10,114 bases of DNA, from the UHGV virus genome UHGV-0885813; one strand, given 5' to 3'. Shown one piece after another: positions 1-10,114 of the stretch. This stretch comes from a virus. Every line of letters starts with the position of its first letter. The first letter of the stretch is position 1. The notes under the pieces are model-generated. The model was not told the DNA's origin. It did not search any database and saw nothing but the letters and a program-made list of their open reading frames with translations. A program made the translations under genes and the position numbers.

Positions 1-26
1 GCGCCTGCGTAATTACCGCTCACGCT

Positions 27-350
27 ATGGCGCTATCAGTAATGACTGAGGAATTAACAATGAAAACAATGAAGCTAAACATCGACCTCGGAAAATACGT
101 TATTACCGGAACAAAACACGATCTGATTCTTAGCGAAAGAGGAATTATCAAAGAAGGCGAGAATGCAGGGAAAGAAACACTAAGTCGTATCGGTTATTAC
201 AGCAAGTTTGAGCATCTGGTCAAAGAGTTATGCAACCGTGAAATCCTGTTATCTCAGGCGCAGACGCTACAGGATATTCAGCAGCATATCGAAACTTTAG
301 GTATGTCACTTAGCATGGCTATTGACCAGTTCGTTGAGAGTAAATCATGA
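27..350 (+). CDS. hypothetical phage early protein; true start may be ATG at 60 or upstream of the window
   Basis: ORF of 107 aa; GAGGA at 48-52 precedes the ATG at 60 (MKTMKLN...). The frame is also open back to the window start. No recognisable domain. Confidence 0.4.
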
Positions 351-507
351 GAGGACTTGCATACAATCCCGGCATTCTTCCGGCAGAAATGATTATTCGC
401 CAACGCGTAAAGCCAATGCCATCGAGAGAGGGATTGCTTAAGAGAAATTCTTTTCCATCAGTGAATCAAAACAAATATCTGAATGCGATGTTGCGGAGTG
501 GGAAGAA

Positions 508-1029
508 ATGAAACAAATGTCACTAATTGAGATGGATGGTTTTCTGAAAGGTAAATGCATCCCACGAGATTTAAAGGTTAACGAAACAAACGCTGAATAT
601 CTTGTGCGTAAATTTGCTGAAGCGGAGGCCAAGATTTCGGCTCTGTCAGAAGACCAACAGAGAGCGATTGAGTCAATTAAGCAGGCTGATGCAGCTGTTA
701 AGTTGGCACACGAGAAGTTTTCGGCGCTGGCTGCGGAGAATGCGGGAATAAAGTCTGCAATTCCAGAACCACGGGATATTGAGGACGACAATGACAATAT
801 GGATGACGTATCTCTTGCTGAAGATTTCGGGTTCAATCATGCAATAGAACTGATGAGGAGACGGATTCCTGAAACTCCGGCAACAGATGCTTTCCTGGCT
901 GAAGTACGGGCGCAGGGCGTGGAGATGGCTATGGAGCATATGCAGTCGAGCGGTTCGTTAACATTTGGAGATTGCTACATATCACTTAACGAGTTCGCCG
1001 CCGAGCTACGTAAAGGAGGCAACCAGTGA
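508..1029 (+). CDS. hypothetical acidic, coiled-coil-like phage early protein
   Basis: ORF of 173 aa with GGAG at 495-498 upstream of the ATG. Its stop overlaps the next start (GTGA at 1026-1029). No recognisable domain. Confidence 0.55.
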
Positions 1030-1325
1030 CTGTATGTCTTATTGATAAACGTCGACGTGGGCAACAAATACCATCTGTTGAAATGCCGAATCACACATGG
1101 TTTTGCGTACTTGATATCGATGGTATGGATACGTTGATCGACACTCGTCATTACTGCGATACCGCAACAGCTACTCCTGCAAAAGCAAAGAAAATGGCTG
1201 CTCTGATAGAAAACTGGACTCCACCTGATGGTTGGTGCAATGGGAATGATCGAGATTGGCACGAAAAAATGAAGGGCTATATCTGCGATTTTTTACGTAA
1301 ATGCAACGGATTCAGGGTGATGTGA
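1026..1325 (+). CDS. hypothetical Cys-rich small phage protein
   Basis: GTG start preceded by AGGAGG at 1012-1017 with good spacing, overlapping the upstream stop (translational coupling). 99 aa; alternative ATG at 1084. Confidence 0.5.
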   Translation: MTVCLIDKRRRGQQIPSVEMPNHTWFCVLDIDGMDTLIDTRHYCDTATATPAKAKKMAALIENWTPPDGWCNGNDRDWHEKMKGYICDFLRKCNGFRVM

Positions 1326-1326
1326 C

Positions 1327-1770
1327 ATGAGCAAGATTGACTATCAGGCACTGCGTGAAGCGGCAGAAAAAGCAACGTGTGGTGAGTGGTCGCTCGAATA
1401 TGGAGAGGGCCGATTTGATGGTGATGATGCACTAATTCATCGCGAGGCTGCTGGATATATTCCCATTTGCAGAATTGAAGGAGCGCATCCTGAAAGCGGT
1501 TTCGATGAAGATTTCCAAATGGAACAGCAGGCCAATGCTGAATTCATCGCCGCAGCCAGTCCAGCTACCGTCTTAGCGCTGCTGGGCGAGCTGGAAACAG
1601 CAAAAAAGCGCATAGCAGAACTGGAGGAGCGGGAAATACTGCTCCCGGAACGTAGCAGCATGCTTCATCGAACAGATTTCCACGAGGATTACCAAACGGT
1701 AATGGCATACAAAGTTTCTGAAGTCATCGCTGCAATCCGCTCCGCTGGCATTCGCATCAAAGGAGAGTGA
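1327..1770 (+). CDS. Ead/Ea22-like family protein
   Basis: N-terminus MSKIDYQALREAAEKAT..GEW matches the conserved start I recall for Ead/Ea22-like lambdoid early proteins. ATG lies 1 nt after the upstream stop. Confidence 0.7.
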   Translation: MSKIDYQALREAAEKATCGEWSLEYGEGRFDGDDALIHREAAGYIPICRIEGAHPESGFDEDFQMEQQANAEFIAAASPATVLALLGELETAKKRIAELEEREILLPERSSMLHRTDFHEDYQTVMAYKVSEVIAAIRSAGIRIKGE

Positions 1771-1771
1771 T

Positions 1772-1969
1772 ATGGATAAAAACACTACTGCTTACTGGAG
1801 TCTGTCACTTGATACCGAATGTCCCAAATGTGGTCACAATTTCGATCTGCTTTGTGATCCAGATTTCTGGGAGTTTTCTGGAGCTAAACAGGCATGTGAA
1901 GAAATAAAAGGTTACGAAACATGCTGTCCAGAATGTAACCATGAATTTAAAACAGATTTTGTGTATTGA
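1772..1969 (+). CDS. small zinc-ribbon protein (CxxC...CxxC)
   Basis: 65 aa with CPKC and CPEC pairs. AGGAG at 1761-1765 precedes the ATG, which overlaps the upstream stop region. Confidence 0.6.
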   Translation: MDKNTTAYWSLSLDTECPKCGHNFDLLCDPDFWEFSGAKQACEEIKGYETCCPECNHEFKTDFVY

Positions 1970-1979
1970 GGCATAACAA

Positions 1980-2732
1980 ATGACCACTATTACCAAAGAG
2001 TTCACCAAAGAGCAGTTGATTGAGCAGGCTAAGAAGAATATTGAGGTTCTTCGCGGTGCGGTGGAAAGAGTCCCAGGCGCTTCTGATGCGGCGGTTATTC
2101 ACCTCAAGCTGGCCGAAATTACGCTGGCATCGCTGGAGGCAAAACCACTGGTGCCCGTCATGTATAAAGGAATGAAACTATTAACAAAAGAGGGGCTTGA
2201 GCTTATTCGTGACGGTATCGCGGAGGCTACGGGACTGGAAGCAATGTGTATGGCTGATGCTTTGCTGTCTGGGGCACCAGCGCCAGTAGTGCCGGATAAT
2301 GCATCAGGGCCTCTTGCTTATGCTTACAAAGAGCTTACGCCTGAGATTATGCGCGGTCATATCGCTGTATTCGAGCGATATGGAATAGCCACAAACGATA
2401 GCTCTACCACAATTCAGGCACTGCGAATCGCGCTGGATGGTATAGAGCGGAGCAACGCCATGCTTAATGGTGACGAGCCTGTAAGCCAAACTTACAAGTT
2501 GAACAAGCTGGCTGGCAACTCTCCGGTAACTCCGGATGGTTGGATAAGCTGTAGTGAGCGAATGCCGGATAAGTTAATTCCGGTAATGGTCATGTATGAA
2601 GACGGTGAGATGTGGTCTGCAATGTGGAATGGTAATCGCTGGGATGATGGCACCGAATATCCGGATCCGCACTCAGTTACGCACTGGCGTGAAATGCCAG
2701 CAGCACCGAAGCAGGAGGTTAACCGTAGCTAA
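1980..2732 (+). CDS. phage early protein with C-terminal DUF551-type domain
   Basis: 250 aa. C-terminus WISCSERMPDKLIPVMVMYEDGE..W.G.RW.....PDPHSVTHWREMP fits the DUF551 signature (W-x-S/C-x-E-x-P ... VTHW-x-P-x-P). GAGG at 1967-1970. Confidence 0.7.
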   Translation: MTTITKEFTKEQLIEQAKKNIEVLRGAVERVPGASDAAVIHLKLAEITLASLEAKPLVPVMYKGMKLLTKEGLELIRDGIAEATGLEAMCMADALLSGAPAPVVPDNASGPLAYAYKELTPEIMRGHIAVFERYGIATNDSSTTIQALRIALDGIERSNAMLNGDEPVSQTYKLNKLAGNSPVTPDGWISCSERMPDKLIPVMVMYEDGEMWSAMWNGNRWDDGTEYPDPHSVTHWREMPAAPKQEVNRS

Positions 2733-2769
2733 CCTGCAACTTGCCGTCAAAGGTGAATACTTCGATGCC

Positions 2770-3009
2770 ATGATTCGCGGAGATAAAACGGAAGAGTATC
2801 GCCTGTGTAATGACTACTGGAATAAGCGAATTATGTTCCGCGAGTATGACCGCCTGATTATCACAAAGGGATATCCGAAGCGCGACGACTTCAGTCGCAG
2901 AATTGATGTCCCATATGACGGATATGAAATCAAGACAATCACACATCCCCACTTCGGCGATAAACCGGTAAAGGTTTACGCGATAAAGGTGAATATCGGC
3001 AATGAATAA
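2770..3009 (+). CDS. ASCH/PUA-like small protein; start codon uncertain, homology appears to begin upstream of the first ATG
   Basis: Frame encodes ...NLQLAVKGEYFDAMIRGDKTEEYRLCNDYWNKRI..., which fits the phage ASCH-domain N-terminal pattern (L.L.LK.KWFD.I.SG.K.EEYR...YW.KR). The first in-frame ATG is at 2770; upstream in-frame there is only a CTG at 2734. Confidence 0.45.
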   Translation: MIRGDKTEEYRLCNDYWNKRIMFREYDRLIITKGYPKRDDFSRRIDVPYDGYEIKTITHPHFGDKPVKVYAIKVNIGNE

Positions 3010-3081
3010 CAATCCTAGCACTCGAGGGGATTTCTTTTATCTGAACTCGCTACGGCGGGTTTTGTTTTTTGGAGATGATAA

Positions 3082-3249
3082 ATGCACTTCCGAGTCACAG
3101 GTGAATGGAATGGAGAACCATTCAACAGAGTTATCGAAGCCGAGAACATCAGCGACTGCTATGACCACTGGATGCTGTGGGCGCAGATAGCACATGCAGA
3201 CGTAACCAACATTCGAATTGAAGAACTGAAAGAACACCAAGCCGCCTGA
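3082..3249 (+). CDS. small hypothetical protein (55 aa), not in the supplied ORF track
   Basis: ATG at 3082 preceded by GGAG at 3071-3074 with 7-nt spacing. Protein-like composition (MHFRVTGEWNGEPFNRVIEAENISDCYDHWMLWAQIAHADVTNIRIEELKEHQAA). Stop TGA sits in the loop of a hairpin followed by a T-run. Confidence 0.45.
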   Translation: MHFRVTGEWNGEPFNRVIEAENISDCYDHWMLWAQIAHADVTNIRIEELKEHQAA

Positions 3250-3261
3250 TGGCGGTTTTTT
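3241..3261 (+). terminator. putative intrinsic terminator (short GC hairpin plus T6)
   Basis: GCCGCC-TGAT-GGCGG followed by TTTTTT. The stem is only 5-6 bp, so it may be weak. Confidence 0.4.
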
Positions 3262-3306
3262 CTTGCCTGATTTGCAGGTTCGATTCCCTATTCGGAGATA
3301 GCACTC

Positions 3307-3507
3307 ATGCAACACGAACTACAGCCTGATTCACTGGTTGATTTGAAATTCATCATGGCCGATACTGGCTTCGGTAAAACCTTCATCTACGACCGGATTA
3401 AGTCCGGCGACCTGCCAAAAGCCAAAGTTATCCACGGACGAGCAAGATGGTTATATCGTGACCATTGTGAATTCAAAAATAAGCTCTTAAGCCGCGCTAA
3501 TGGGTAA
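3307..3507 (+). CDS. torI: AlpA/Xis-family recombination directionality factor (excisionase), TorI-like
   Basis: 66 aa. Central ...MADTGFGKTFIYDRIKSGDLPKAKVIHGRARWLYRD... fits the AlpA/Vis/TorI winged-helix family. It lies immediately upstream of the attP core and the integrase, and length and sequence match my recollection of E. coli KplE1 TorI. GGAG at 3293-3296. Confidence 0.75.
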   Translation: MQHELQPDSLVDLKFIMADTGFGKTFIYDRIKSGDLPKAKVIHGRARWLYRDHCEFKNKLLSRANG

Positions 3508-3522
3508 AATAGCGGGTAAAAT
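3502..3522 (+). repeat. direct repeat GGGTAAAAT x2 (12-bp spacing), candidate arm-type Int/RDF binding sites
   Basis: GGGTAAAAT at 3502-3510 and 3514-3522. The same 8-mer recurs at 3712-3720, and inverted as TTTTACCC at 3734-3741 and 3749-3756, flanking the core. Confidence 0.4.
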
Positions 3523-3580
3523 ATTTCTCACATCTAAAAAATATCATTCCAATCAATCCCCTGCCGCGCCAAGTAGATGT

Positions 3581-3595
3581 CTGCAGGGGACACCA
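3581..3595. other. attP core: 15-nt identity to the 3' end of tRNA-Arg(CCU) argW (CTGCAGGGGACACCA)
   Basis: Matches the T-stem 3' half, acceptor 3' strand, discriminator and CCA of argW as I recall it. Lies between the excisionase and the integrase, as expected for an argW-integrating element. Confidence 0.6.
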
Positions 3596-3690
3596 TTTAT
3601 CAGTTCGCCCCCATCCGTACCAGTCCGCAAAATCCCCTGAATATCAAGCCTTCCGTAGATTCACGGTTCGTCATGGTTCGCGTCAGATCG

Positions 3691-3720
3691 TTGACAGCCG
3701 CACTCCATGACGGGTAAAAA
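3691..3720 (+). promoter_or_regulatory. putative sigma70 promoter of the integrase gene overlapping GGGTAAAA repeats
   Basis: TTGACA at 3691-3696, 18-bp spacer, TAAAAA at 3715-3720. Overlapped or flanked by GGGTAAAAA (3712-3720), TTTTACCC x2 (3734-3756) and tandem TCAYGGTTCG x2 (3661-3680). Confidence 0.4.
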
Positions 3721-3756
3721 GTGGATAAAATAATTTTACCCACCGGATTTTTACCC
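3712..3756 (+). repeat. GGGTAAAA / TTTTACCC inverted-repeat cluster at the int 5' end (candidate arm-type sites)
   Basis: GGGTAAAAA at 3712-3720; TTTTACCC at 3734-3741 and 3749-3756. Same 8-mer as the direct repeats at 3502-3522. Confidence 0.4.
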
Positions 3757-4914
3757 ATGCTCACCGTTAAGCAGATTGAAGCAGCAAAGCCGAAAGAAAA
3801 ACCATACCGCCTTCTCGATGGTAATGGCCTGTACCTTTATGTCCCTGTATCAGGGAAAAAGGTATGGCAGCTTCGCTACAAGATTGACGGTAAGGAGAAA
3901 ATCCTGACTGTCGGAAAATATCCGCTTATGACTTTGCAGGAAGCAAGGGATAAGGCATGGACTGCGAGGAAAGACATCTCGGTTGGCATCGATCCGGTAA
4001 AGGCGAAAAAGGCTTCGTCTAACAACAATTCCTTTAGTGCGATTTACAAGGAATGGTACGAGCACAAGAAGCAAGTCTGGTCAGTAGGCTATGCAAACGA
4101 ACTTGCCAAAATGTTTGATGACGACATTTTACCCATCATCGGCGGTCTTGAGATTCAGGATATTGAGCCGATGCAACTGTTGGAAGTAATCCGCAGATTT
4201 GAAGATCGCGGTGCAATGGAGCGAGCCAACAAAGCACGCAGAAGATGCGGCGAGGTTTTCCGTTACGCTATTGTCACCGGAAGGGCTAAATATAACCCGG
4301 CACCTGACCTTGCAGACGCCATGAAGGGATACCGCAAGAAGAACTTCCCGTTTCTTCCTGCAGACCAGATCCCGGCATTCAACAAAGCACTGGCAACATT
4401 TTCAGGAAGTATCGTATCGCTCATTGCGACCAAAGTTTTACGCTACACAGCCCTAAGAACGAAAGAGCTTCGTTCCATGCTATGGAAGAACGTCGATTTT
4501 GAAAACAGGATTATCACCATCGACGCCAGTGTGATGAAGGGACGCAAAATTCATGTGGTCCCGATGTCAGACCAGGTGGTTGAACTTCTCACTACGCTAA
4601 GCTCCATCACCAAACCAGTATCAGAGTTTGTTTTTGCCGGGCGCAACGATAAGAAGAAGCCAATCTGCGAGAACGCGGTTCTACTTGTGATCAAACAAAT
4701 CGGCTATGAGGGTCTGGAAAGCGGTCACGGATTCAGGCATGAATTCAGCACGATTATGAACGAGCACGAATGGCCTGCTGACGCTATTGAAGTGCAACTG
4801 GCACATGCCAACGGCGGATCTGTGCGTGGAATTTACAACCATGCTCAGTATCTCGATAAGCGCAGAGAAATGATGCAGTGGTGGGCGGACTGGCTTGATG
4901 AAAAGGTGGCTTAA
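3757..4914 (+). CDS. intS: P4-family tyrosine integrase, IntS-like (argW-specific)
   Basis: 385 aa from the ATG at 3757 (MLTVKQIEAAKPKEKPYRLLDGNGLYL...). Shares P4/CP4-57 integrase hallmarks (..KQIEAAKPK.., C-terminal ..MMQWWADWLD..). The ORF track's GTG at 3721 is an alternative start but falls inside the promoter/repeat region. Confidence 0.9.
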   Translation: MLTVKQIEAAKPKEKPYRLLDGNGLYLYVPVSGKKVWQLRYKIDGKEKILTVGKYPLMTLQEARDKAWTARKDISVGIDPVKAKKASSNNNSFSAIYKEWYEHKKQVWSVGYANELAKMFDDDILPIIGGLEIQDIEPMQLLEVIRRFEDRGAMERANKARRRCGEVFRYAIVTGRAKYNPAPDLADAMKGYRKKNFPFLPADQIPAFNKALATFSGSIVSLIATKVLRYTALRTKELRSMLWKNVDFENRIITIDASVMKGRKIHVVPMSDQVVELLTTLSSITKPVSEFVFAGRNDKKKPICENAVLLVIKQIGYEGLESGHGFRHEFSTIMNEHEWPADAIEVQLAHANGGSVRGIYNHAQYLDKRREMMQWWADWLDEKVA

Positions 4915-5166
4915 TGCCATCTCACATAGTCCTTACATCATTGGTAGCATGATTAATGAAATGCGCAACCATACCAGGCACTTCTACCCATTCAATGGTG
5001 GCGCCAGCCCAATTATTGCTCCACAATTAAGAACATCATCGCCTTACTATGCTTCAGCAACGCTTGCATAAAAAAAAGTAATGTCTCTATCATCTTTTAC
5101 CAGTGTGACATAATTACATCAAAACTAAATGTATATACATTACACCATAACAAGGAATGGCATTAA

Positions 5167-5194
5167 TTACATGTTTACATTAGTATGCTAAAAT
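5167..5194 (+). promoter_or_regulatory. possible promoter for the acyltransferase gene
   Basis: TTACAT at 5167-5172, 16-bp spacer, TAAAAT at 5189-5194, about 30 nt upstream of the ATG at 5226. The region is AT-rich, so hexamer matches are easy to find by chance. Confidence 0.25.
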
Positions 5195-5225
5195 GCTGTT
5201 TTTTTTAGTTTGATAGGCTGATGCA

Positions 5226-6215
5226 ATGAACAGAAATGCCGGAATGGATGCTCTTAGAATCATAAGTTGCTTTATGGTTGTTTGTATACATACATGCCTG
5301 AATTATAAATATGGTCAAGATTCTCTCAACAACCTTCTCGCATTATTTGGTCAATCTTTATTCAGAATTGGACTCCCTGTTTTTTTTATTCTTAGCGGTT
5401 ATTTCATACTTAATTCAAGAGTTGACTTTACCGCAAGTTCTTTTTTCAAAAGAATAAAGAAAATTGCCATCCCTTTTATTTTTTATAGCATAGCCCACTG
5501 GTTTATAATAAATAAAGGAATGACAGTAAGTTTTTCTGGAGTGGCGGAATATATCAATGCTTTAACAGTAAGAAATTCAATATCTATACATTTTTAGTTC
5601 GTTTACTCACTAATTGGGATATATATATTCGCACAACCAATAAATTATCTTTTAAAAGATATTTCTATTAATGGTTCATTTTTTGGATTAATCATAATAG
5701 CTTTTTTGTTTCTATATAATGGTGACCTGCCTTCTATTGGTAATGTCTTACCTGTTTCAAGCGTCGATAAGTGGACTGCTTACTTTGTTGCAGGAGGTTT
5801 TCTTGCAAGGATAAAAGACAAAATATCCATTAATCAAGCTATTATATTAACACTAATTGGATACACATCCATTGTGTTTATTTCTGTTTACAATAGCAAG
5901 AACAATCATCCAATGCCATACGACTTCAGCATTAGTATGTTTGTTGCTTGTTGTGGAGTTGTCCTGCTATTTTCAAAATTACATATCAAAAACAGCAAAT
6001 TATTAAGCAATCTTTCAGAATCTACGTACGGGGCATACCTAATACACATTTGTATTTTAAAGTTATTATCTCCATTTTACTTTACTCACATTCATAAGCC
6101 CGGCGTAATAAATTATTTTTTTACCACATTTATTTTAGCGGTGTTTGTTTTTACAGTTTCTATAACCATATCATTGATGTTGTTACCTATATTTAAAAAT
6201 CGATATTTGAAATAG
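5226..6215 (+). pseudogene. oac: Oac-like O-antigen acyltransferase (acyltransferase-3 family) interrupted by an in-frame amber codon at 5595-5597
   Basis: Track ORFs 5226-5597 and 5706-6215 are in the same frame, and everything between them is open except the TAG at 5595-5597. The joined product (about 329 aa) is a multi-pass membrane protein with N-terminal ..DALRIISCFMVVCIHT.. and FFILSGYF motifs typical of Acyl_transf_3 (Oac/OafA). The TAG falls where the family has a conserved Trp (H-F/L-W-F). Markedly AT-rich by eye compared with int. Confidence 0.75.
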
Positions 6216-6304
6216 GACCTAATTAGCAGCAATGGAATCCTGTTGTTGTATTATTCTATTACGCTTGTCATAATACCATTGTTTAAACATTGTATAGTTT
6301 AAAC

Positions 6305-6333
6305 CAAAAAATACGCCTGCTAAACAGGCGTAT
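6305..6333 (-). terminator. intrinsic terminator downstream of the tailspike; hairpin shared with the convergent oac transcript
   Basis: 9-bp stem ATACGCCTG / CAGGCGTAT with a 5-nt loop at 6311-6333. On the - strand it is followed by TTTTTT (complement of the A-run at 6305-6310). Sits 7 nt past the tailspike stop. Confidence 0.6.
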
Positions 6334-6339
6334 TGCAGG

Positions 6340-8232
6340 CTAGGTGTTAGTGATTTTCTTCCATGCAGATGCTGTAGTACCAGTTGCTTTATACCACTCA
6401 AACTGACCAGCAGTCGTGTCAAGATATTCTTCTCCAATATATCTTGGAACTACATTGTTTATTGGGTTTTGCGCCTGTTTCCTAACAAAGAAACGATCAT
6501 CCCAAAGCTTTTGTGTTTCATAGTTTAGAAATGACATTCCAGCGATGGTTAATAATGGTGATCCTGATGATTGATTTGAATTAATATACATACTAATCAC
6601 ATGCCATCCTCGTGATGCTATATGTATACGTGCCGATTTTTGCGTATCATACGATGAGTTTCTATCTATTGAAAGTGTATTATCTTTAACATTTAAGTTT
6701 AATGTTGCCGATGGTTTTGATGTGATATCACCATTAATAATTTCAACAACTCTATCATCAAGAGAATATTGTGATTGAGGAAGTCCAAAATCAAGCTCTA
6801 TAGATAAAGCTGAATTTGCCACAATAATGCTTGGGGTGAAAATAAGATCATCCTCATCAGCGTAGAAGCATATAAACACTTTATTTCCATACTGGCTTGT
6901 TTCAACAACATAACCACCAGTGTAACTTGCTAACGGCGGGCTAACCATTGATGGTTTATTTAACTGAGTTCCCCATGCCCCATCCTTTAGCTTCATAGAT
7001 GTTTCGAAAGTTCTTACATTAATATTTGTTCCTGATTTAACTTTCGTTGGGTTATTAAATTTAGAAAGTAGAAATGCAAAAACTTTTGCCGCAAGGTATT
7101 TATAACCCTCTTCACGAAAATGAACATTATCACTAAATCTTGTTGAGTCAATACCGTAAAAAACTTCTACACCGTCAAGAACTGGTATTCCGTATTGTTC
7201 GCCAATATTAAAAACAGCTTCTCTATAAGCATCAAGAAGCCTTACATTTGCACCATATTGTTTCTGTGGAGGTGGAGTTATCAAAATTACAGCAGCCCCC
7301 TTCACAAGTTCTCTCGCAATTATTTTCTTATAATAAAAAATATAGTCTGATATTGACTGGTAAGGGCTGAATCCCTGTGCAGCATCATTTGTTCCGTACA
7401 TGATAATAGTTAAATCACTATTAACATTTACATCCCAATCACCCCACCCTAATTTAGTATTATCACCTGAATAGCCTTGGTTAATAACATTAATGGATGA
7501 TGAAAATGCTTGCTGAAGATAGCCTTGCAACGCCTGAGGGTAAGTTGTTGCTGCCCTTGTTTTATTATGAACACGACCTGATGCTGTAGGAGTTGTATCT
7601 GGTGGAGTCGGTGCAACTGTAGTGTCTTCTCCATATGTCAGGGAATCACCTCGGCAAACGATGGTTATCGCGTCTGAATCACGTGCTACCTTTTCTGCAT
7701 ACTTGCTAAGATTTAGTCTTTGTAGAGCGTGTAATTGTTTCCCTAGTATTATTTGCGATCCAATATCGACAGAGTCATCTGAAAGCGCGAGGTTCATAGC
7801 TTTGTCGGCAACATCAACAGAGTTTGCAATATCTTTTGCATGCTTACCTGCAATGATAACTTCGCTACCTTCTTGCGCTAATCTTTGCTCAAATTGGTCT
7901 GGATCGTACTTCAGCACATTAGGAAAATAGAACTGCTGCACACCGTACGCATCATAAACAGCCATAGAATGGCCTTGCACAGTTACGAACTTGGCAATCT
8001 GTCCGTTATATACCGGATATCCAGCGGCGTTAATGATGATTGGTTGCGAAACAGGAACGTGAGAGCCGTCTTCGTTCTCCACATAAACCTGAATCCGGTT
8101 TTCAGGATTTACCGGGTCAGTGTCAATTTTACCGATATAAATTTTGCCATTGGCTACGGCTTTAAAAGAACGCGCCATAGTGAAGAGTTGCGAAGGCATT
8201 CCAATAACAGCATTTGGGGTGATTTCCGACAT
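6340..8232 (-). CDS. tailspike protein: P22/Sf6-type head-binding N-terminus, central SGNH/GDSL hydrolase domain, uncharacterised C-terminal domain
   Basis: From the internal ATG (plus-strand 8230-8232, preceded by AGGA): [69 protein letters not shown] closely matches the P22 gp9 / Sf6 head-binding domain. Downstream are all four SGNH blocks in order: GDSLTYG (Ser codon at 7642-7644), [18 protein letters not shown] (His codon at 7120-7122). 630 aa from this start. Confidence 0.85.
7066..7683 (-). other. SGNH/GDSL esterase domain within the tailspike
   Basis: Blocks I, II, III and V (GDSL, G, GxND, DxxH) span roughly residues 215-420 of the track ORF. Confidence 0.7.
7876..8232 (-). other. 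P22-like tailspike head-binding (particle-binding) domain
   Basis: About 115 aa with high similarity to the P22 gp9 N-terminus as recalled ([22 protein letters not shown]...[13 protein letters not shown]...NVLKYDPDQ). Confidence 0.75.
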
Positions 8233-8423
8233 GTGCACAATCCTATTAGATTGATTCGATAAAGAAGGGAAAGGAGTTAATGCTACAAATGACGCTATTG
8301 ATTTGAAAAATGATCTTCTGTTCATTTAAAACACACTTTAAGCATGACATTTGGTAGTAATGTAAGAAAAAATTACAATCAACTCCATAGCTATTTAATT
8401 TTTAACAGTAATTCACATCTGCA

Positions 8424-10114
8424 TTACCCTGACAACGCATCAGACTTAACGCCTTGGGTCAGCGCGTTAATTGCCTTTTGTGCCTGACGCAAGGCTTTCT
8501 CAAACGCTGTTGATCCGCGTGGGGTATTTGCCATCCGGAGCATTGCATTTCTGAATGGCTCGCTCTCATAGGCTCGAGTAAGAAGTCCGTAGCTTACTGC
8601 TGCGCCAGTTGTCGCCGGGTTCATTGCTGTCCCATATCCGATAATGAACGGGATGGTTTGCTGCCCTGTTGGTGTTGTTACTGCCGCTTTTGCAGCCTGC
8701 TGCGTGGATTGCAGGTAGTTTTTCAATCCTTTCAGATAAGCGGCTTCCTGACCTTTAAATGTGATGCCAGTCTGATTTTGCAGAATGTTAAGCTGTCGAA
8801 GGAACTGGTCAGGGGATCCGCCAGATTTCTCCATCGCCTTTCCAATGATGCCATTGCGCATTTGCGCCCTGCCAACACGACCAACTGAGTTATACAGAGT
8901 CTTAATTTCCGATTTGTTCTTGCTGAATAGCATGTTGTTGACAACTTCCGGCGTCAGGTCGCCTTTCATGAGAACATTCTTCAGCCTGGTATTCTTTAGT
9001 TTCGCCGCTTCGTCAGCGTAGACGGCATTGGCCTGCTGATATTTACGAAGAGTATCATTGCCAAGATTCTGACCAATGGCACCATTGATATCGTCGGTCA
9101 TCGCCTTGTAAACTCGCTGAATGGCAGCATCGGAACGGTTTGGTAACACTGGTCGCTCACCCTTCACGTCCATTCTGAACTGGCTGCGCAGATCGCTTAA
9201 TTGCTTCAAATCCAGATTTACCGGACCATCAGGACCAGCATTGCGAACAAGCTCATCACGATAGGACTGAAGTTTTGAAATAGTCTCGTTATCAGCAACC
9301 TTACCAAGCTTCTGCAGGTTAGATATTTCTGTATCAATCTGCTGAATTGCTCCAGCAGGCTGAATGTTTACTCCGGCCATAGCATTCTGAACCTGCTCCA
9401 GTCGATTACCGGCGGCACGACGAATTCCTGATGTTTTCGCTTTAAGGCTGTCAATAACAACCGCTGGATCATACTCACCGAATTTATCGGCAAATCTCTG
9501 CACCAACTGGCTTCTCGCTTCCTGTTGCGTTGCTCTCATTCCGCTTGTGCCAGCCAGAGGGATATTTTCTGCTGTAGTCTGCGCCATTTTTCCGACGCGG
9601 GAAGTAGGCGGTAACAGGTCTGTGGTGTGCAGAGGAACTCCTTCACGCTCTGCAAATCTGATAGCCTGCTGCGCTTCTGGTGCAATAGCACCACGAACGC
9701 CACGATAAGCAGCACCTAATCCACGTCCGGCAGCGTTAATAGCGCCGCCAGCCAGAACGCCAATGCCTAAATCGGTAGCGAGTGCTTCCGCATCATCTTT
9801 CGCACTATTTGCAGCAAGTGACCCGACTGCGTTTTCAGCGAGAAGGCGAGTTGCACCCTGAGCGATTCTACCAGCGAGTGTTGGTGCCTGTGTTGCCGCT
9901 CTCTCAATGCCAGCAGGAGTGAGGTAAGGCAATGCCTCAGCAAATACCCTGCCCTCTGTAGTTTGTGGAGTCAGCGCGCCTTGCTGAAGGCCAAAGTCCT
10001 GCTCTAATCCATGCGTTGTTACTCGTGGCGTTGGGTGATATGTCCCATCGCCAATTCCGAGTTTACCGCCAGCCCAAGCCGCCGCGCTTGTTACAGCATC
10101 GGCAACTGATGCAG
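8424..10114 (-). CDS. DNA-ejection/transfer protein, gp16-like; 5' end lies beyond the window
   Basis: I translated 9933-10114 on the - strand and found the frame open to the window edge with no start codon, so the 502-aa track ORF is a truncation. Gly/Ala/Gln-rich composition and position immediately upstream of the tailspike fit P22 gp16 / Sf6 ejection protein; the assignment is by synteny and composition, not a verified alignment. Confidence 0.65.
   Translation of the reverse strand, partial: ASVADAVTSAAAWAGGKLGIGDGTYHPTPRVTTHGLEQDFGLQQGALTPQTTEGRVFAEALPYLTPAGIERAATQAPTLAGRIAQGATRLLAENAVGSLAANSAKDDAEALATDLGIGVLAGGAINAAGRGLGAAYRGVRGAIAPEAQQAIRFAEREGVPLHTTDLLPPTSRVGKMAQTTAENIPLAGTSGMRATQQEARSQLVQRFADKFGEYDPAVVIDSLKAKTSGIRRAAGNRLEQVQNAMAGVNIQPAGAIQQIDTEISNLQKLGKVADNETISKLQSYRDELVRNAGPDGPVNLDLKQLSDLRSQFRMDVKGERPVLPNRSDAAIQRVYKAMTDDINGAIGQNLGNDTLRKYQQANAVYADEAAKLKNTRLKNVLMKGDLTPEVVNNMLFSKNKSEIKTLYNSVGRVGRAQMRNGIIGKAMEKSGGSPDQFLRQLNILQNQTGITFKGQEAAYLKGLKNYLQSTQQAAKAAVTTPTGQQTIPFIIGYGTAMNPATTGAAVSYGLLTRAYESEPFRNAMLRMANTPRGSTAFEKALRQAQKAINALTQGVKSDALSG

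Follow-up and report, generated by a model that had tools for sequence, protein, structure and literature searches.

The 10,114-nt stretch of the virus genome UHGV-0885813 analysed here (hereafter, the window; one strand, numbered 5' to 3' from its first base) contains, at positions 3307–4914, the gene torI, a phage attachment site (attP), and the gene intS. On the evidence of its sequence, this region is an attP within a KplE1-type recombination module that targets the arginine tRNA gene argW, and nothing that we found contradicts its identity as attP. The module is already known; almost certainly, it is the ordinary integration module of a temperate phage from the P22-like HK620/Sf6 group in its non-integrated arrangement. 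The same module is found in the phages HK620, Sf6, CUS-3, and Kapi1 and in the defective K-12 prophage KplE1 (also called CPS-53), and positions 3200–4910 of the window are 96–98% identical to 17 phage records, including those of HK620 and Sf6. In Sf6, HK620, KplE1, and Kapi1, int and xis flank attP, and the two genes end up at opposite ends of the prophage (PMC8787464). The module is conserved across these phages (PMC3509656, PMC2951348), and its hallmark is an integrase promoter that overlaps attL, with the transcription of int uncoupled from that of the recombination directionality factor (RDF) gene (PMC2951348; PMC3509656). An earlier note on this DNA, made from the sequence alone, had offered the arrangement as a fresh inference, but it is the published and annotated organisation of the four phages named above.

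The core of the attachment site, CTGCAGGGGACACCAT, is located at positions 3581–3596 on the plus strand and consists of 16 bp that are common to attB and are the same in K-12 attL, K-12 attR, HK620, and Sf6. The earlier note had proposed that torI and intS flank a 15-nt core taken from the argW 3' end. This sequence, CTGCAGGGGACACCA, does occur between the two genes, only once, at 3581–3595, where it corresponds to nucleotides 61–75 at the 3' end of argW. The identity with attB runs one base past the end of argW, to 3596, and so yields the 16-bp core length annotated in HK620. On the left side, positions 3266–3596 of the window (torI, P arm, and core) aligned with K-12 attR with 11 mismatches in 331 nt, the host sequence diverging immediately after 3596; on the right side, positions 3581–3770 (core, P' arm, and intS) aligned with K-12 attL with five mismatches in 190 nt, the body of argW diverging just before 3581. 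The region in the window equals what results when the left half of attR and the right half of attL of K-12 are fused, and it is therefore attP. Among 5,426 complete E. coli genomes, most matches covered one half of the region only and broke at query base 382, that is, at window position 3581, next to an annotated tRNA-Arg. In the window, neither a complete argW beside intS nor host DNA from the dsdC side was found at the core, which has phage arms on both sides. ARAGORN detected no tRNA gene in the whole 10,114 nt, so the complete, immediately adjacent argW gene that the earlier note had named as evidence for attL or attR is absent. An Rfam scan of the whole window likewise returned nothing meaningful.

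The two genes that flank the core are nearly or completely identical to those of K-12. torI (hkaC in HK620 and gene 18 in Sf6; 3307–3507, plus strand) encodes a 66-amino-acid RDF (excisionase), which matches phrog_66 (excisionase) and is identical at 66/66 residues to K-12 TorI and to the solved structure PDB 1Z4H. intS, which lies on the same strand beyond a 249-bp spacer (3757–4914), encodes a tyrosine integrase of 385 amino acids that is identical to K-12 IntS at 383 of 384 residues (99.7%). The open reading frame (ORF) finder started intS at a GTG at 3721 (3721–4914), whereas the ATG at 3757 gives 385 amino acids, as in HK620 and K-12 IntS. The Pfam domains of the product are Arm-DNA-bind_3, Phage_int_M, and Phage_integrase, consistent with a heterobivalent tyrosine integrase with predicted N-terminal arm-binding, central, and C-terminal catalytic domains. 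The region therefore holds an IntS-type integrase gene, a TorI-type RDF gene, and a 16-bp argW core, with attP between genes of the same orientation, as a module of this type should.

The core is surrounded by repeats of GGGTAAAA. The window has six copies of this sequence, whereas 0.34 would be expected, and a count of six was not reached in any of 200 shuffles. Five of these copies, together with one GGATAAAA variant, form two clusters, one on each side of the core, as the earlier note had described (starting at 3502 and 3514 on the torI side and at 3712, 3734, and 3749 on the intS side). The P arm has two direct repeats on the plus strand, at 3502–3509 and 3514–3521, which overlap the torI stop codon; these are the same in K-12 attR, and HK620 has an annotated "attP" repeat region at the equivalent position. 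The P' arm has four repeats within 3712–3756: GGGTAAAA at 3712–3719 and GGATAAAA at 3723–3730 on the plus strand, and GGGTAAAA at 3734–3741 and 3749–3756 on the minus strand, the last directly adjoining the intS ATG. The sixth copy of GGGTAAAA lies inside intS on the minus strand (4127–4134), 370 nt past its start, where HK620 also has an annotated attP repeat. In KplE1, the arm-type P' sites of IntS share the motif TAAA, and P'1 overlaps the –10 box (Panis 2010, PMC2951348). By their match to the KplE1 P' sites, the GGGTAAAA-type repeats are predicted to be arm-type sites of IntS. The earlier note had regarded them as possible TorI sites as well, a reading that does not hold, as the TorI motifs are separate and lie between the core and the –35 box (PMC2951348).

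In KplE1, TorI binds at five sites with a GTTCG, GATCG, or GTCCG motif, which fall into two blocks and whose positions are given relative to the intS ATG (PMC2951348). When these coordinates were projected onto the window, the five motifs were found exactly where expected: block I1–I2 at 3601–3628 (plus strand; GTTCG at 3603–3607 and GTCCG at 3623–3627) and block I3–I5 at 3664–3691 (plus strand; GTTCG at 3666, GTTCG at 3676, and GATCG at 3686), with I5 directly adjoining the –35 box. All five lie on the plus strand within the 96 nt from the core to the –35 box, where 0.19 would be expected from the window-wide density, and no GTTCG, GTCCG, or GATCG occurs on the minus strand of the same 96 nt. 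In KplE1, I4 and I5 mediate the repression of the intS promoter (PintS) by TorI (PMC2951348). PintS itself is located at 3691–3720 on the plus strand, with a –35 box TTGACA at 3691–3696, an 18-nt spacer, and a –10 box TAAAAA at 3715–3720, which lies in the arm-type site P'1. In KplE1, PintS has the hexamers TTGACA and TAaAAa, and primer extension has been used to map where its transcription starts (PMC2951348). Positions 3683–3770 of the window match K-12 without a mismatch, in agreement with the earlier note's view that the integrase promoter lies in the att site in a layout like that of KplE1 autoregulation. The perfect TTGACA that it had placed inside the repeat field is present but lies 15 nt before the first repeat on the intS side; it is the –10 box that overlaps a repeat instead. 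A generic promoter scan did not list PintS because the scan accepts only –10 boxes whose sixth base is T; the assignment of the promoter therefore relies on the experiments in K-12. Overall, torI, the core, the repeats, TTGACA, and intS were all present at or near the places where the earlier note had put them, and above chance; the five TorI motifs (3603–3690), the six arm-type sites, and both promoter hexamers are conserved here.

Given the near-identity of the region to KplE1 and HK620 substrates used in vitro, IntS, TorI, and IHF would be expected to bind to it, and attP to recombine with the attB in argW. A search of positions 3450–3760 for an IHF site returned none, although it covered only the strict form of the consensus, and weaker sites are possible. 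The following scheme combines the sequence identities found here with the biochemistry established for KplE1. The N-terminal domain of IntS would bind the GGGTAAAA-type arm sites, of which the P arm has two and the P' arm four, while its catalytic domain would bind the 16-bp core and carry out strand exchange with the same 16 bp in argW. Owing to the position of attP between the two genes, integration would place intS beside argW, at attL, and torI at the far end of the prophage, at attR. For excision, TorI would bind its five GTTCG-type sites, which lie between the core and PintS, and steer IntS towards the reaction between attL and attR. The intS promoter is embedded in these sites, so that intS would be repressed by IntS bound at P'1 and by TorI bound at I4 and I5. 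As long as the site is an attP, early-left transcripts that run rightward through the ea genes and torI could read on across attP into intS, and integration would break any such coupling of ea/torI transcription to intS.

The earlier note had also taken the contiguity of torI, attP, and intS as a sign of the excised state. The attP junction stands, whereas the excised state does not follow from contiguity, because the same junction occurs in tandem prophages of E. coli ET776. The sequenced DNA is nevertheless most likely non-integrated phage DNA. The evidence for this is indirect. Positions 1–4909 of the window are identical to contig NODE_34 (71x) of the ENA assembly ERZ807378, which is unbroken through the attP junction, and positions 4855–8878 are identical to contig NODE_48 (56x, reversed) of the same assembly; the contig overlaps, at 4855–4909 and 8824–8878, are each 55 nt long. 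Both contigs, which were identified through exact protein matches, measure 4–5 kb and do not reach past the window, and exact 40-mers from the junction downstream of intS had no match in the collections of viral and genome contigs scanned. With k = 55, which is greater than the 16-bp core, any attL and attR present alongside attP would have produced branches in the assembly graph to the left and right of the core, provided that ERZ807378 was produced with a de Bruijn graph assembler.

Several points weigh against this reading. The binding and recombination activities are deduced from sequence identity, and the attP junction is also found within chromosomal tandem prophages. The contigs break in the 3' end of intS and in the gene of the P22 gp16 type, so the sample must hold other sequences with these 55-mers; together with the unequal coverage (71x versus 56x), these breaks suggest that more than one element shares these sequences. 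What links the att module to this tailspike gene is the window's own assembly, together with its synteny with Sf6.

The most serious alternative is that the junction is the internal attP of at least two tandem prophage copies at argW (attL–prophage–attP–prophage–attR) rather than free phage DNA. Such an array exists in E. coli ET776 (NZ_CP100909, approximately 1,453,000–1,515,000), in which dsdC and torI (attR) are followed by a P22-like prophage, intS–attP–torI, and a second copy, with a tandem period of 40,497 bp; the 1,213 nt of overlap that were compared matched perfectly. Moreover, a contiguous torI–attP–intS match was present in 17 complete E. coli genomes, mostly in the chromosome. Some of these 17 matches are on "plasmid" records of approximately 39 kb, which are probably free phage genomes. 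However, a tandem lysogen would also hold attL and attR, yet NODE_34 crosses the core without a branch, and no host sequence occurs anywhere in the 10 kb. We therefore regard tandem prophages as an improbable source of the window.

An assembly chimera, in which the attR side of one element was joined to the attL side of another through the 16-bp core, is less probable again, and only a slight chance can be given to it. The source is apparently a short-read assembly of a sample with related repeats, and its contigs do break, at 4855–4909 and 8824–8878. However, the 16-bp core is much shorter than the 55-nt overlap used, so that a k-mer path through the junction needs real reads over the P arm, the core, and the P' arm; the junction also lies 1.3 kb within NODE_34, and 17 independent phage genomes share the contiguous arrangement. 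Finally, the possibility that the region is the attL or attR of an integrated prophage and its contiguity a misreading is close to nil: the one-half matches that break at 3581 in most E. coli genomes do show that the integrated form is the commoner one in databases, but the window has no tRNA gene, its sequence upstream of the core is the P arm and torI rather than the body of argW, its sequence downstream is the P' arm and intS rather than host DNA from the dsdC side, and the alignments to K-12 refute this reading.

Upstream of torI, a second piece of argW was found. An exact 16-nt copy of argW nucleotides 46–61, TTGCAGGTTCGATTCC, is located at 3272–3287 on the plus strand, 19 nt before the torI ATG and in the same orientation as the core, and covers the variable region, the 5' strand of the T-stem, and the T-loop. 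No chance match of this kind is expected, even when two mismatches are allowed. Its last base corresponds to argW nucleotide 61, which is also the first base of the core. The fragment is retained in K-12 KplE1, HK620, and Sf6 and marks the left edge of the block common to K-12 and the phages; it was not found in the Klebsiella phage Chronis, a 77%-identical relative. It also overlaps the second half of a TTGC-N5-TTGC sequence (3263–3275, plus strand), which is annotated in HK620 as the cII-binding site of a putative integration promoter, pI; this annotation, transferred here by alignment, is a prediction by the HK620 authors, and the cII site is putative. It is rather unlikely that the fragment is more than a coincidence, either as a fossil of the architecture or as part of the control of torI. 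As a fossil, it may be left from the origin of the layout in which attP lies between xis and int, for example, from an older and longer block of tRNA identity or from a tandem-integration junction at argW; a role in torI control may be considered because of its overlap with the TTGC-N5-TTGC of the cII site proposed for HK620. No description of the fragment was found in the literature that we read on the module. We also considered whether the fragment and the core were once a single block that was parted by the insertion of torI. This idea is weakened because the GATGT just before the core already resembles the GATTC of the T-loop, so that the two pieces overlap rather than abut, and it is further weakened by the absence of the fragment from phage Chronis.

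Two other features border or cross the module. A terminator-like GC hairpin (3239–3262, plus strand), with a stem of eight pairs followed by TTTCTTGC, ends the early-left "ea" gene block directly before the recombination module; it is retained in HK620 and Sf6 but not in K-12. A 46-amino-acid ORF at 3500–3640 on the plus strand corresponds to hkaB of HK620, gene 17 of Sf6, and phrog_18701. This ORF spans the attP core, so integration would split it, and the substitutions at 3542, 3544, 3565, 3568, and 3569, which distinguish the window from K-12, HK620, and Sf6, all lie within it. It is probably not a real gene.

Downstream of intS, an acyltransferase-3 family gene (5226–6215, plus strand) has a frame of 329 codons with a single in-frame TAG at 5595–5597 (...SIHF*FVYS...), and ORF finders consequently split it into pieces of 123 and 169 amino acids; the same split is present on the ENA contig NODE_48. 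The gene is a candidate for O-antigen modification. It is followed on the minus strand by a tailspike gene (6340–8232) of 630 uninterrupted amino acids, which consists of a head-binding domain of the P22 gp9 type (Pfam Head_binding, E = 6e-64) and an SGNH/GDSL esterase domain. The head-binding domain is of the kind found in P22-like phages (Lederbergvirus). The N-terminal 130 amino acids match the structures of the Sf6 and P22 tailspikes, and the best phage matches of the C-terminal 486 amino acids are Vibrio phage tail proteins, with 54–55% amino acid identity. The protein is of an unusual type, with an esterase domain in place of the glycosidase beta-helix. The last gene of the window, a DNA-ejection protein gene of the P22 gp16/Sf6 gp13 type (8424–10114, minus strand), is represented by its 3' 563 codons; it is open to the end of the window, which cuts it, and its first approximately 100 codons lie beyond. 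At the protein level, it is 98% identical to residues 164–664 of Sf6 gp13. A megablast comparison of positions 4900–6400 with the 5,426 complete E. coli genomes gave no match, and neither the esterase-type tailspike nor the amber-interrupted acyltransferase had a nucleotide match in those genomes. When positions 4900–8400 were compared with 50,697 phage records, matches were found only at the head-binding end of the tailspike.

These genes delimit what can be said of the phage as a whole. The earlier note was correct that the tailspike is intact and that a KplE1-like module is attached to a P22-like phage, given that torI, attP, and intS lie beside a P22-type tailspike. Its "full P22-like virion module" and "intact ejection protein", in contrast, go beyond what the window holds, as the only virion genes present are the tailspike gene and the partial gp16-type gene, and any head, portal, and terminase genes would lie beyond the 10,114 nt. 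That interpretation is therefore partly supported: its central reading is correct, but its outlying claims go too far. The module carries little weight as a discovery; it is textbook-level in its field and approximately 96–98% identical to that of annotated phages. Its value lies in annotation: it identifies the contig as a temperate, P22-like phage with argW as its target, allows the integration site and the ends of the prophage to be predicted exactly, and provides base-level coordinates for the IntS sites, the TorI sites, and the intS promoter. The adjoining cargo, namely the esterase-type tailspike and the amber-interrupted acyltransferase, decides which host O-antigen is recognised and modified and is therefore likelier than the att site to hold something new.

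Compared with known systems, the module is closest to those of HK620 and Sf6. HK620 (AF335538; Clark et al. 2001) has hkaC, the attP core, and int in the same order and orientation, with 96.7% identity over positions 3202–4907, and its annotated features (the 16-bp core, the arm repeats, including the one within int, and two promoters) map base for base onto the window. It differs by nine substitutions in 361 aligned nucleotides on the P side, five of which are clustered at 3542–3569, and in its cargo, the window having another receptor-binding part in its tailspike and containing the acyltransferase gene. Sf6 (AF547987; Casjens et al. 2004) is the best match for the whole window, 49% of which it covers at 95.7% identity, and shares the succession of the gp16-like gene 13, tailspike gene 14, O-antigen acetylase gene 15, int (gene 16), attP, gene 18 (TorI), and the ea genes; its attP region is annotated as in HK620. 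However, the acyltransferase gene of the window is unrelated to Sf6 oac at the DNA level and has an amber stop, and the catalytic part of the tailspike is an SGNH esterase, whereas that of Sf6 is an endorhamnosidase. KplE1/CPS-53 (Panis et al. 2007, 2010) has an identical TorI, an IntS that differs by one residue, and conserved PintS, TorI, and P' sites. It is an integrated element in which intS and torI occupy opposite ends, as the earlier note had stated, at a distance of 10 kb, and virion and immunity genes are missing from it, whereas in the window, intS and torI flank an intact attP beside P22-like tail genes. Phage lambda resembles this module in that its integrase recognises core sites as well as arm-type sites, its RDF is a small winged-helix protein, and its integration proceeds by strand exchange at a short core. 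In lambda, however, attP lies outside the int–xis pair, so that the two genes remain adjacent in the prophage and share transcription from PL, whereas integration of the module described here would part the two genes, with int having its own autoregulated promoter in the att site.

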